Source: Escherichia coli (lineage in GTDB: Bacteria; Pseudomonadota; Gammaproteobacteria; Enterobacterales; Enterobacteriaceae). Taken from it: 64,000 nt of DNA. The translations under genes and the position numbers were made by a program. The DNA lies in assembly GCF_003018235.1 (NCBI RefSeq), contig NZ_CP027437.1. One strand, 5' to 3'. Below the pieces are notes generated by a model. The model was not told the DNA's origin. It saw only the letters and a program-made list of their open reading frames with translations, and did no database searches. Positions within the stretch are counted from its first letter, which is position 1, and every line of letters starts with the position of its first letter. Of this stretch, positions 574 through 5,730 are shown in pieces.

Positions 574-1193
574 GGCACGGGCTGCTGGCGCTGATTTGCT
601 GGCTGTGTTGTGTTGTTGCCCATAGCGAAATGCTGAATGTCGAACAATCCGGGCTGTTTCGCGCGTGGTTTGTACGCATTGCACAGGAACAACTCCGCCA
701 GGGGCCAAGCCCACGCTGGTATCAGCAGGATTGTGCGGGCCTGGTGCGATTTGCGGCGAACGAGGCGCTGAAAGTTCACGACAGCAAATGGCTAAAAAGT
801 AACGGTATAGCAAGTCAGTATTTGCCGCCTGAAATGACGCTAACACCTGAACAGCGTCAACTGGCGCAAAACTGGAATCAGGGGAACGGGAAAACCGGCC
901 CCTACGTGACCGCGATTAATTTGATTCAGTACAACAGCCAGTTTATTGGCCAGGACATAAACCAGGCGCTGCCTGGCGATATGATTTTTTTCGATCAGGG
1001 CGATGCCCAGCACTTAATGGTCTGGATGGGGCGTTACGTCATCTACCACACCGGAAGCGCCACGAAAACTGACAACGGAATGCGCGCAGTCAGTCTGCAA
1101 CAACTTATGACATGGAAGGACACCCGATGGATACCCAACGATTCCAATCCCAATTTCATTGGCATTTATCGTTTAAATTTTCTGGCGCGATAG
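570..1193 (+). CDS. yfaT: YfaT-like protein (DUF1175 family), 207 aa from ATG 570
   Basis: ORF 543..1193 in the supplied track; ATG at 570 overlaps the yfaA stop (ATGA) and gives 207 aa, the length I recall for YfaT. Start choice is inference. Confidence 0.6.
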
Positions 1194-4100
1194 CAGCGTG
1201 CTTGTGCCTGTCTTTTGTGGGAACAGGGCTTGCTAATGCTGATGATTCGCTTCCTTCCAGTAACTATGCGCCGCCCGCCGGGGGAACATTCTTTTTGCTT
1301 GCTGACAGCAGTTTTAGCAGCAGTGAAGAGGCGAAAGTGCGACTGGAAGCGCCGGGGCGTGATTATCGGCGCTATCAGATGGAAGAGTACGGCGGCGTGG
1401 ACGTTCGCCTGTATCGTATTCCTGACCCGATGGCATTTTTGCGCCAGCAGAAAAACCTGCATCGCATTGTGGTGCAACCGCAATATCTGGGCGACGGGCT
1501 GAACAATACGCTGACCTGGCTGTGGGATAACTGGTACGGCAAATCTCGCCGCGTGATGCAGCGTACTTTCTCTTCTCAGTCACGGCAGAATGTGACTCAG
1601 GCATTACCCGAATTACAGCTCGGCAATGCCATTATTAAACCTTCCCGTTATGTACAGAACAACCAGTTTTCCCCGCTGAAAAAATATCCACTGGTGGAAC
1701 AGTTCCGTTACCCATTATGGCAGGCTAAACTGGTCGAGCCGCAGCAAGGGGTAAAACTGGAAGGCGCATCCAGCAATTTCATCTCGCCGCAGCCGGGCAA
1801 CATCTATATTCCTCTCGGCAAACAAGAGCCGGGACTGTACCTCGTCGAGGCGATGGTCGGTGGATATCGGGCGACGACGGTGGTATTTGTCTCTGATACC
1901 GTGGCGCTTAGCAAAGTGTCGGGTAACGAGCTCCTGGTGTGGACCGCGGGTAAAAAACAGGGGGAAGCGAAGCCGGGATCAGAGATCTTGTGGACTGACG
2001 GTCTTGGCGTGATGACCCGCGGTGTGACCGATGACAGCGGTACCTTGCAGTTACAACATATATCGCCGGAACGTTCATACATTCTGGGTAAAGATGCTGA
2101 AGGCGGCGTTTTTGTCTCCGAGAATTTTTTCTACGAAAGCGAAATCTACAACACCCGCTTGTATATCTTTACCGACCGCCCTCTGTATCGTGCAGGCGAT
2201 CGTGTTGATGTCAAAGTGATGGGCCGCGAGTTCCACGACCCGTTGCATTCATCCCCCATCGTCAGCGCCCCGGCGAAGCTTTCAGTGCTGGACGCCAACG
2301 GCAGTCTGTTGCAAACCATCAATGTCACGCTGGATGCGCGTAATGGCGGGCAGGGGAGTTTCCGCCTGCCAGAAAATGCCGTCGCCGGAGGTTATGAGTT
2401 ACGCCTGGCTTACCGCAAACAGGTCTATAGCAGCAGTTTTCGCGTAGCCAACTACATCAAACCACATTTTGAGATTGGCTTAGCCCTCGACAAAAAAGAG
2501 TTCAAAACAGGCGAAGCGGTCAGCGGCAAACTGCAACTGCTTTACCCGGATGGAGAGCCGGTAAAAGATGCCCGCGTGCAGTTAAGTTTGCGATCCCAAC
2601 AACTGTCGATGGTGGGCAACGATTTGCGTTATGCCGGACGTTTTCCCGTGTCGCTGGAAGGCAGTGAAATGGTGTCCGACGATAGCGGTCATGTGGCGTT
2701 AAATCTCCCCGCCGCTGATAAACCAAGCCGTTATTTGTTAACCGTCTCCGCCAGTGACGGTGCGGCGTATCGTGTCACCACCACCAAAGAGATCCTCATT
2801 GAACGTGGCCTGGCGCATTATTCATTAAGTAATGCCGCACAATACAGTAATAGCGGCGAGTCGGTTGTGTTCCGTTATGCCGCGCTGGAATCTTCAAAAC
2901 AGGTTCCTGTTACGTATGAATGGTTGCGTCTCGAAGACCGCACGAGCCATAGCGGAGAGCTACCGTCAGGCGGCAAATCTTTTACCGTCAATTTCTCTAA
3001 ACCTGGCAACTACAATCTGACATTACGCGATGAAGACGGCTTAATTCTCGCTGGGTTAAGTCATGCCGTCAGCGGTAAGGGCAGCACGGCGCATACTGGT
3101 ACGGTAGATATCGTGGCGGATAAAACGCTGTACCAGCCAGGCGAAACCGCGAAGATGCTGATTACTTTCCCGGAGCCAATTGATGAAGCATTATTGACGC
3201 TGGAACGCGATCGCGTTGAACAGCAGTCGCTGCTATCGCATCCGGCAAACTGGCTAACGCTACAACGTTTAAACGATACCCAGTATGAAGCCCGGGTTCC
3301 AGTGAGCAATTCCTTTGCGCCTAACATCACTTTTTCGGTGCTGTATACCCGTAATGGTCAGTACAGTTTTCAGAACGCCGGGATCAAAGTTGCCGTTCCT
3401 CAGCTTGATATCCGGGTAAAACGGACAAAACCCATTACCAGCCTGGTGAACTGGTCAATGTCGAATTAACCTCGTCGCTGAAAGGTAAACCTGTTTCTGC
3501 GCAGCTAACGGTTGGCGTGGTCGATGAAATGATCTACGCGCTGCAACCGGAAATCGCGCCGAATATCGGCAAATTTTTCTATCCGCTGGGGCGTAACAAT
3601 GTGCGTACCAGCTCCAGTCTGTCGTTTATCAGCTACGACCAGGCGCTCTCCAGCGAGCCGGTTGCGCCTGGCGCGACTAACCGCAGCGAGCGGCGAGTAA
3701 AAATGCTTGAACGTCCACGGCGTGAAGAGGTGGATACCGCGGCATGGATGCCGTCACTCACAACTGATAAACAAGGCAAAGCGTATTTCACGTTCCTGAT
3801 GCCTGATTCGTTAACCCGTTGGCGCATTACAGCCAGAGGGATGAACGGCGACGGGCTGGTCGGGCAGGGGCGTGCTTATCTTCGTTCGGAAAAAAATCTC
3901 TACATGAAGTGGAGTATGCCAACGGTGTATCGCGTGGGCGACAAACCGGCGGCAGGACTGTTTATCTTCAGTCAGCAGGATAACGAACCGGTGGCGCTGG
4001 TGACTAAATTTGCAGGCGCTGAGATGCGCCAGACGCTGACGCTGCACAAAGGGGCGAATTATATTTCGCTGACGCAGAATATTCAGCAATCTGGCTTGTT

Positions 4101-5730
4101 AAGTGCAGAACTGCAACAAAATGGGCAAGTGCAGGACAGCATTAGCACAAAACTGTCTTTTGTGGATAACAGCTGGCCCGTTGAACAGCAGAAAAATGTC
4201 ATGCTCGGCGGTGGCGAGAACGCGCTGATATTGCCCGAGCAGGCGAGCAATATCCGGCTACAAAGTAGTGAAACGCCGCAGGAGATTTTCCGCAACAATC
4301 TTGATGCGTTAGTCGATGAACCGTGGGGTGGGGTGATCAACACCGGTAGCCGTCTGATCCCGCTCAGTCTCGCCTGGCGTTCGCTTGCCGATCATCAAAG
4401 TGCCGCCGCTAACGACATTCGTCAGATGATTCAGGATAACCGTCTGCGGCTGATGCAACTGGCGGGGCCCGGAGCACGCTTTACCTGGTGGGGTGAAGAT
4501 GGCAATGGCGACGCCTTCCTGACTGCATGGGCATGGTACGCCGACTGGCAGGCCAGCCAGGCGCTCGGCGTAACGCAACAACCGGAATACTGGCAGCATA
4601 TGCTCGACAGTTATGCCGAGCAGGCAGATAACATGCCGTTATTGCATCGGGCGCTGGTGCTGGCGTGGGCACAGGAGATGAATCTGCCGTGCAAAACGTT
4701 GTTGAAAGGGTTGGATGAAGCTATCGCCCGGCGCGGAACTAAAACTGAAGATTTCTCTGAGGAAGACACCAGCGATATCAATGACAGCCTGATCCTCGAT
4801 ACACCGGAATCTCCACTGGCAGATGCGGTGGCAAACGTCTTAACCATGACGTTGCTGAAAAAAGCGCAGTTGAAGTCCACTGTGATGCCACAGGTTCAGC
4901 AATATGCGTGGGATAAAGCGGCAAACAGCAATCAGCCGCTGGCGCACACGGTTGTGCTGCTTAATAGCGGTGGCGACGCTACCCAGGCGGTCGCTATTTT
5001 AAGTGGTTTGACCGCTGAGCAATCTACTATTGAGCGCGCGCTGGCCATGAACTGGCTGGCGAAATATATGGCGACAATGCCTCCAGTTGTTTTGCCTGCG
5101 CCTGCGGGCGCATGGGCCAAACATAAGTTAACTGGAGGGGGCGAAGACTGGCGTTGGGTTGGTCAGGGTGTGCCGGACATTCTCTCTTTTGGTGACGAAT
5201 TATCGTCGCAAAATGTGCAGGTCCGCTGGCGTGAACCGGCAAAAACGGCTCAACAAAGTAACATTCCGGTGACCGTTGAACGCCAGTTGTATCGGCTTAT
5301 CCCTGGTGAAGAAGAGATGAGCTTTACTCTGCAACCGGTGACCAGCAATGAGATTGACAGCGATGCGCTGTATCTCGATGAAATCACGCTTACCAGCGAG
5401 CAGGATGCAGTTCTGCGCTACGGTCAGGTGGAAGTACCGCTCCCACCGGGAGCCGACGTTGAGCGCACAACATGGGGCATTTCGGTCAATAAACCCAACG
5501 CCGCGAAACAGCAGGGGCAATTGTTGGAAAAAGCGCGAAATGAAATGGGCGAACTGGCCTATATGGTGCCGGTGAAAGAACTGACGGGAACGGTCACTTT
5601 CCGCCATTTGCTGCGCTTCTCGCAAAAAGGGCAATTCGTTCTGCCTCCTGCTCGTTATGTGCGTTCCTATGCACCTGCACAGCAAAGTGTTGCGGCAGGG
5701 AGTGAATGGACCGGGATGCAGGTGAAATAA
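1112..5730 (+). pseudogene. yfaS: alpha-2-macroglobulin family protein YfaS, disrupted by a frameshift near 3415-3425 (fragments 1112..3469 and 3517..5730)
   Basis: Two consecutive same-strand ORFs (785 aa and 737 aa) in different frames. Hand translation shows the downstream frame is already open at 3421 ([37 protein letters not shown]), so one indel near the A-runs at about 3418-3430 splits a gene of about 1520 aa. yfaS is annotated as a split pseudogene in K-12 (memory). Confidence 0.7.

Follow-up and report, generated by a model that had tools for sequence, protein, structure and literature searches.

The window, a stretch of 64,000 nucleotides of Escherichia coli DNA (contig NZ_CP027437.1), begins within yfaA, the first gene of the cluster yfaA-yfaT-yfaS-yfaQ-yfaP, in which the gene order matches that of E. 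coli M7424 and K-12 (Table 1). The gene yfaS is flanked by yfaA, yfaT, yfaQ and yfaP, in this order DUF2138, DUF1175 (MagC), DUF2300 and DUF2135 genes, and the start of yfaQ abuts the yfaS stop. At the position of yfaS itself, the list of open reading frames (ORFs) contains two long ORFs on the + strand, 1112..3469 and 3517..5730, that are in different frames. The first of these opens at ATG 1112; the K-12 start corresponds to ATG 1127, and the N-terminus encoded from there resembles, by eye, a signal peptide in which 'IAAC' also fits the lipobox pattern. The start assigned by PGAP (GTG 1217) would drop this putative signal-peptide stretch. In the 3' part, the frame is open from 3409, and the gene callers choose its first ATG, at 3529 (codon 802), which yields a 733-aa ORF.

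Table 1. Features of the yfaS locus in the window
Feature	Coordinates	Strand	Evidence and remarks
yfaA, 3' part (DUF2138)	1..573	+	562-aa gene calls on near-identical contigs ending at window 573; 5' end cut by window start
yfaT, intact, 207 aa, DUF1175 / MagC-like	570..1193	+	Pfam DUF1175 (E=1e-58); length equal in K-12 and M7424
yfaS, 5' fragment	1127..3469	+	ORF list and translations; Pfam MG2 and start of A2M_BRD
1-base deletion site, G of codon 764 (GTG) gone	3417..3418	+	Alignments with intact M7424 and with K-12
yfaS, 3' part, codons 765-1534 and stop, -1 frame relative to 5' part	3418..5730	+	Translations; Pfam A2M and bMG10
yfaQ, intact, 549 aa, tandem DUF2300	5731..7380	+	Pfam; length equals K-12 b2226
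yfaP, intact, 258 aa, DUF2135	7385..8161	+	Pfam; length equals K-12 b2225

Both halves of yfaS match one protein family, with the MG2 and A2M_BRD domains in the first and A2M and bMG10 in the second. Re-insertion of a single G restores one uninterrupted ORF of 1534 aa whose product is 98.8% identical to the intact protein at the amino-acid level, and the Pfam matches of the repaired YfaS are all above the curated cut-offs (MG2, 2.6e-26; A2M_BRD, 4.6e-18; A2M, 3.6e-12; bMG10, 3.5e-06). The original identification as an alpha-2-macroglobulin-like yfaS gene, here of about 1520-1534 aa, is correct. No match to the CXEQ thioester motif (C.EQ) is found across the repaired 1534-aa sequence, and a PDB sequence search with YfaS gave only a marginal match, to complement C5, with no close solved relative. 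As judged from the sequence, the window yfaS is a pseudogene of a type II (thioester-less, YfaS/MagD class) bacterial alpha-2-macroglobulin rather than a working member of this class.

Over 4.6 kb, the sole difference in length between the window and the intact yfaS of E. coli M7424 is one 1-base gap, so that the earlier claim of a single indel splitting the gene holds. The alignment places the loss of a lone G between 3417 and 3418 (GGGTGAAAAC in the intact allele, GGGTAAAAC in the window), where the intact codons ATC CGG GTG AAA ACG are opposed to ATC CGG GT- AAA ACG in the window (codon 764), within A2M_BRD (residues 661-806). The missing base, with T and A as its neighbors, adjoins the run AAAA at 3418-3421 and lies outside it. 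An indel in an A-rich stretch at 3418-3430 had been proposed; the deletion is indeed at the 5' edge of this interval, but outside the A run and outside any homopolymer. Given that a lone G is missing beside AAAA rather than from within it, this is not a homopolymer indel, and the A-run candidate is ruled out by the alignment.

The same junction is found beyond this record. It is identical in independent assemblies (assemblies, not reads) of at least four other SRA runs: the Logan assemblies of SRR22548703, SRR28642458 and SRR21461730 carry it with 4 SNPs each relative to the window over 10.7 kb, and in that of SRR8930575 a stretch of 6,469 bases, junction included, matches the window at 100% identity. 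The exact product of the 733-aa ORF was recovered by exact protein look-up on 13 public contigs. Each of the 24 contigs examined that have the YfaQ allele of the window falls together with places whose yfaS is split (710+733 aa), in a collapsed place listing where a contig differing only in yfaS would be merged too. About 48 assemblies have both the YfaQ and the RcsC allele of the window. By contrast, not one of 5,426 complete E. coli genomes contains the junction, which therefore marks one lineage; there is no match among GTDB species representatives either. An intact version of the window allele, sought by exact look-up from either start (1534 aa and 1504 aa), is absent from a collection of 15 billion proteins, and a protein word-index search with the N-terminal fragment returned only odd-length cluster representatives, among which the allele could not be placed.

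Altogether, the yfaS of the window is very probably a genuine, vertically inherited loss-of-function allele that originated by deletion of one G, recently, and became fixed in a single E. coli lineage; of the three readings originally offered, the inactivating mutation is the supported one. Spontaneous loss of one G in codon 764 (GTG AAA to GTA AA) shifts the reading frame within the bait-region domain. From the normal start, codons 1-765 are read as native, followed by 15 aberrant, out-of-frame codons and a TAA at 3467-3469. The product of about 780 aa keeps the N-terminal MG domains and loses the rest of the bait-region domain, A2M, the thioester-like domain and MG10. The downstream 770 codons would no longer be usefully translated. 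Inspection of the sequence reveals no evident Shine-Dalgarno-like sequence before 3517 or 3529, and a product initiated at ATG 3529 would lack an export signal and could not reach the periplasm. Polarity from the long untranslated stretch may additionally reduce yfaQ and yfaP expression. The dN/dS between the window yfaS and the intact M7424 gene is 0.073, with low values both upstream and downstream of the lesion; together with intact yfaT, yfaQ and yfaP, this value points to a recent loss. Three SNPs within the lineage fall inside yfaS, all of them nonsynonymous. The deletion is a separate event from the nonsense mutation of K-12 and from nine or more further frameshift alleles known from other strains. 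In this sense, the window yfaS is an ordinary pseudogene.

Since the most frequent error of long-read assemblies is the single-base indel, the genome might keep the G, the base having been dropped in the sequencing or assembly of this single record. Such an error is barely credible here: the missing base is a lone G between T and A, with no homopolymer, the same junction recurs in the independent assemblies described above (13 contigs in total), and one of these matches the window base for base over 6.5 kb. The lone G and the recurrence of the junction across independent assemblies effectively refute an assembly artefact and, with it, the sequencing error at a homopolymer considered originally. 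Some functional YfaS could still be made by leaky or programmed -1 ribosomal frameshifting. A -1 slip at GT-A_AA.A-CGG, a Z_ZZ.N tetramer, would recreate the exact wild-type protein: tRNA-Lys on AAA 3419-3421 would move to AAA 3418-3420, a shift that the rare CGG codon in the A site may promote. The tetramer A_AA.A is among the six that frameshift above background when a pseudoknot follows, but it is the weakest of these (PMC4066793). In the overlap zone 3409-3466, where the zero-frame codons begin ATC CGG GTA AAA CGG ACA AAA CCC, no zero-frame heptamer X_XXY_YYZ occurs, only the A_AA.A tetramer. No stimulatory structure was found downstream: the 79 nt at 3422-3500 fold no better than shuffled sequences (-14.6 kcal/mol; mean of the shuffles, -14.62; z = 0.01). 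Moreover, the two-frame arrangement is not conserved: the 5,426 complete E. coli genomes and the GTDB species representatives all lack it, and relatives have one continuous ORF. A run of four A is also too short for transcriptional slippage. Partial rescue by frameshifting thus appears very unlikely, and the frameshift-prone site suggested at the outset comes down to a weak tetramer.

Alternatively, both ORFs might be expressed, giving two chains that together form a functional macroglobulin, similar to the pair of products that bait-region cleavage leaves. Indeed, the break falls in the bait-region domain, both ORFs are predicted by gene callers, and there is a precedent in MagD of Pseudomonas aeruginosa, which undergoes natural cleavage to an N-terminal product of 91 kDa and a C-terminal one of 74 kDa (PMC5764988). 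However, the second ORF would have to start at codon 798 (GTG) or 802 (ATG), so that about 33-36 residues of a beta-sandwich domain would be missing from both products. Neither of these starts (3517 and 3529) follows a Shine-Dalgarno-like sequence, and on inspection the C-terminal fragment has no signal peptide and so could not reach the periplasm. The exclusively nonsynonymous SNPs of the lineage likewise speak against a functional split gene, which can hardly be considered a serious contender. Inherited loss of function through the 1-G deletion remains the preferred explanation; the loss may have been fixed by drift or, less probably, favored by selection. Frameshifts in yfaS were found in 10 of the 88 sampled complete genomes, representing 9 distinct lesions, all annotated as 'frameshifted' by PGAP, whereas yfhM, a type I gene of similar length, has a net frameshift in none of 59 sampled complete genomes (Fisher p = 0.006, with genomes counted without regard to phylogeny). 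The other lesions map to codons 463 (+7), 704 (+CG), 779 (delta T), 922 (delta A, in an A7 run), 1067 (+G and +GG), 1068 (delta T), 1395 (delta A) and 1445 (delta T). Like the window deletion, they are small indels with the rest of the operon usually intact; none of the 9 distinct lesions is at codon 764. E. coli lineages lose the long gene yfaS repeatedly. With the K-12 nonsense mutation and the window deletion added, these counts are compatible with selection for the loss, for instance through a niche-dependent cost of a Mag-like complex. The strong purifying selection on intact alleles (dN/dS 0.07) fits a niche-dependent value of the gene, and a P. aeruginosa magD mutant grows better in chlorhexidine, for which trade-offs have been proposed (PMC12663445). 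Against selection, a non-essential gene of 4.6 kb offers a large target for mutation, the genomes sampled are few and, through their phylogeny, not independent, and some of the frameshifts in complete genomes may be assembly errors (e.g., the one in the A7 run, in strain ES9). Selection rather than drift is the less likely mode of fixation of the window deletion. A broader reading, also of low probability, is that E. coli preferentially and repeatedly loses yfaS, or in certain lineages all of yfaA-yfaP, possibly as an adaptation. If it is correct, the window deletion would be one of many independent hits and would reflect a niche-dependent cost of a periplasmic defense complex. As a minor variant of repeated loss, the window allele could be slightly leaky via the -1 slip at GT-A_AA.A-CGG.

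The present case is a routine pseudogene call, of the kind flagged as 'frameshifted' by annotation pipelines, that carries little weight alone; the literature searched contained essentially nothing on yfaS pseudogenization. The exact junction GGGTAAAAC can be considered a clean marker for one E. coli lineage. The survey suggests that loss is far more frequent for yfaS than for yfhM, which provides a small lead on the role of the Mag-like complex in enterobacteria.

In K-12, the yfaS pseudogene (b4500, NC_000913.3 2329798-2334402) is the same gene in the same operon position (yfaA-yfaT-yfaS-yfaQ-yfaP, by gyrA and atoB) and is also inactivated, but not in the same state, contrary to what had been assumed. 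The K-12 gene contains no indel relative to the intact allele and instead carries an in-frame TGG to TGA change at codon 1368 (W1368*), 604 codons downstream of the window lesion, which removes only the last 166 residues and is common to 364 genomes. The window yfaS, in contrast, has TGG at codon 1368 and the deletion at codon 764; overall identity between the two alleles is 97.0%. A K-12-type pseudogene is thus ruled out for the window, and comparison of the two alleles indicates that the lesions are independent in origin. The window lesion should be neither equated with the K-12 allele nor 'corrected' as a homopolymer error.

The studied type II bacterial alpha-2-macroglobulin is MagD of P. 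aeruginosa (PA4489), encoded in the magABCDEF operon. MagD acts as a non-covalent protease trap and gives protection against peptidoglycan-targeting T6SS effectors (PMC5764988, PMC12663445). Like MagD, the repaired YfaS is a large, putatively periplasmic protein that is built of MG domains, has a bait region and lacks the CXEQ thioester, and the likeness, which is based on domains, the absent CXEQ motif and operon content, extends to the DUF2138, DUF1175 (MagC), DUF2300 and DUF2135 proteins of the operon. YfaS is a putative periplasm-protecting alpha-2-macroglobulin. Non-covalent protease trapping and periplasmic protection have been shown only for P. aeruginosa MagD, whereas the window copy is a pseudogene. 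E. coli YfhM (ECAM), a type I protein, belongs to the same superfamily and is likewise a periplasmic protease trap, encoded by a 4.96-kb gene that adjoins pbpC. It differs from the CXEQ-less yfaS product in possessing a CLEQ thioester and a lipobox, and is encoded in a different operon.

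The region corresponds to an 'alpha-2-macroglobulin family protein' gene, yfaS, that was matched in 5,383 of the 5,426 complete E. coli genomes; its immediate neighbors are yfaT and yfaQ, beyond which lie gyrA and yfaA in one direction and yfaP and atoB in the other, and the window aligns collinearly with K-12 (97-98% identity). The window's ORF list contains two long plus-strand ORFs, 1112..3469 and 3517..5730, which are read in different frames. In translation, the first frame stops at 3467-3469 and the second is open from 3409, so that any frame switch must lie within 3409-3466. 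When 1112-5730 is aligned with the intact yfaS of strain M7424 (PGAP CDS, 1504 aa) and with K-12, the sole real gap is one G of codon 764 (GTG, Val) that the window lacks between positions 3417 and 3418 (intact GATATCCGGGTGAAAACGGAC; window GATATCCGGGT-AAAACGGAC). Putting the G back yields one 4,605-base ORF (1534 codons from the K-12 start) that contains no further stops or indels and encodes a protein with 98.8% amino acid identity to that of M7424. The split is thus real and, of the original readings, that of an inactivating mutation was right, but the indel was wrongly attributed to a homopolymer: the missing G stands alone, with a T before it and an AAAA run after it. Pfam domains of the repaired protein are MG2 (344-440), the bait-region domain (661-806), A2M (871-953) and bacterial MG10 (1409-1517); the break therefore falls inside the bait-region domain, and the product from the native start consists of 765 native and 15 aberrant residues. 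The annotated starts of yfaS differ: PGAP begins the 1504-aa intact gene at a GTG equivalent to window 1217, which cuts off a predicted hydrophobic N-terminal export signal, and the K-12 annotation uses an ATG equivalent to 1127 (1534 aa), with a 67-base overlap with yfaT. The leader contains 'IAAC', which fits the lipobox pattern.

The supposed identity with the K-12 state does not hold either. The K-12 pseudogene, b4500, has a length of 4,605 bases, divisible by three, and aligns with the intact allele without any indel; it carries TGA at codon 1368, where both M7424 and the window have TGG. This nonsense allele is common to 364 genomes (91-base probe, 100% identity), and the carriers listed are K-12 derivatives such as MG1655, C600, J53 and ER1709. 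A sequencing or assembly error, also entertained originally, is contradicted by the recurrence of the junction in assemblies of separate SRA runs. It is present in three Logan assemblies (SRR22548703, SRR28642458 and SRR21461730), each with 4 differing positions in 10,730 relative to the window. The 710-aa N-terminal ORF is found on two contigs, and the one retrieved, from the SRR8930575 assembly, is identical to the window at 6,469/6,469 compared bases, deletion included. An exact copy of the 733-aa ORF from ATG 3529 is present on 13 contigs of the public protein collection. The YfaQ and RcsC alleles of the window occur in 48 index blocks, and all 24 YfaQ-allele contigs read group with places showing the 710+733-aa split. 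By contrast, none of the complete E. coli genomes carries the deletion: top matches to the 91-base junction probe reach 98.9%, being identical save for the one-base gap, and every junction-spanning 28-mer of a 42-base probe lacks a match there. Neither was the junction found in GTDB species representatives, nor an intact version of this allele in a 15-billion-protein collection with both common starts. Taken together, these results make the deletion a genuine marker, inherited within a single lineage.

Restoration of the frame by a -1 ribosomal slip would be expected to yield at most a trace of full-length protein. The zero-frame codons are ATC CGG GTA AAA CGG ACA AAA CCC, and if tRNA-Lys slipped back by one base, from AAA 3419-3421 to AAA 3418-3420, reading would continue with ACG GAC and restore exactly the wild-type ...IRVKTD... 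However, the overlap zone contains no slippery heptamer, the slip site being only an A_AA.A tetramer; the 79 nt downstream are no more stably folded than shuffled sequences (z = 0.01), which offers no stimulatory structure; and the two-frame arrangement is conserved in no relative. Transcriptional slippage would need a longer run than four A's. In a systematic E. coli study, tetramers lacking a stimulator gave 0.147% frameshifting versus a 0.112% background, and of the six tetramers stimulated by a pseudoknot, A_AA.A responded least (PMC4066793). It is also unlikely that the two ORFs act as a two-chain protein: the second would start at codon 798 or 802, leaving a gap in a beta-sandwich domain, and has no evident ribosome-binding site or export signal. 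The yfaS of the window is, then, a known gene that has recently become an ordinary pseudogene in one lineage.

The dN/dS ratio of the repaired gene is 0.073 against M7424 (0.037 upstream and 0.112 downstream of the lesion) and 0.074 against K-12. These low values on both sides of the lesion indicate that yfaS was under strong purifying selection until recently, over its full length. The neighbors yfaT (207 aa), yfaQ (549 aa) and yfaP (258 aa) are intact. All three SNPs in yfaS within the lineage are nonsynonymous (L30F and T569N on the window's branch, G616D in L003, a near-identical contig with the same split), which fits relaxed constraint, the numbers being too small to test. The best identity of this allele to any of the 5,383 complete genomes is 97.9%, whereas the neighboring 25 kb (8200-33000) reaches 99.0%, and dS against K-12 falls from 0.15 in the 5' half of yfaS to 0.066 in the 3' half; these differences suggest that the locus is a mosaic shaped by recombination, in a lineage with few representatives.

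Two evenly spaced samples from the ranked complete genomes gave 29 and 59 full-length yfaS matches. In 10 of these 88 records the yfaS length departs from 4,620 by a number not divisible by three, and all ten, when fetched, were marked 'frameshifted' by PGAP, although some may hold assembly errors. With nine distinct lesions among them, frameshifted yfaS is common, and the window holds one more independent allele.

Lesions in sampled yfaS records and features of the insertion at proL
Feature	Position	Strand	Change
yfaS lesion	codon 463		+7
yfaS lesion	codon 704		+CG
yfaS lesion	codon 779		delta T
yfaS lesion	codon 922		delta A in A7 run
yfaS lesions	codon 1067		+G and +GG
yfaS lesion	codon 1068		delta T
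yfaS lesion	codon 1395		delta A
yfaS lesion	codon 1445		delta T, two strains
Fused ClpP-type prohead protease and HK97-like capsid protein	48173-50065		
Second integrase	50984-51994		
Primase/helicase-like AAA_25 protein	52431-53828		
Tyrosine integrase, adjoins tRNA proL	56193-57449		
tRNA-Pro(GGG) proL	57650-57726	-	

Three O157 genomes (PA2, C1-057 and 493/89) are in different indel states at or beside the same G4 run in codons 1067-1068 (+G, +GG and delta T), and yfaQ is annotated 'internal stop' in all three; on these annotations, the whole yfaA-yfaP cluster seems to be decaying in the O157 lineage. Strain Z1323HEC0393 has an internal stop in yfaT instead.

Elsewhere in the window, about 10.3 kb (47324-57726) absent from K-12 are inserted beside proL and additionally encode small regulators; the insertion resembles a small integrative satellite of phages, perhaps one of the capsid-forming PICIs. 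The autotransporter gene yejO (44629-47220) is one unbroken 863-aa ORF, whereas that of K-12 is split by IS5. A draft contig of the same lineage (GCA_025137755.1) has an indel relative to the window beginning at 18590, in the rcsC-rcsB intergenic region (~18590-18700). The Logan contigs all end near this region, which suggests a repeated or variable element there.

The type I macroglobulin gene of E. coli, yfhM (4,962 bases), differs from yfaS: across 59 sampled genomes, its only variants are in-frame ones of 3 bases (frameshifts 0/59 versus 10/88; Fisher p = 0.006, in a test that ignores shared ancestry). YfaS itself is uncharacterized in E. coli (PMC10882980). The repaired protein contains no CxEQ motif and falls in the thioester-less type II class, as does MagD of Pseudomonas aeruginosa, which upon bait-region cleavage traps a protease non-covalently and which also enters complexes with other Mag proteins (PMC5764988). 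The mag operon shields P. aeruginosa from T6SS effectors that target peptidoglycan, and a mutant in magD shows improved growth in chlorhexidine (PMC12663445).
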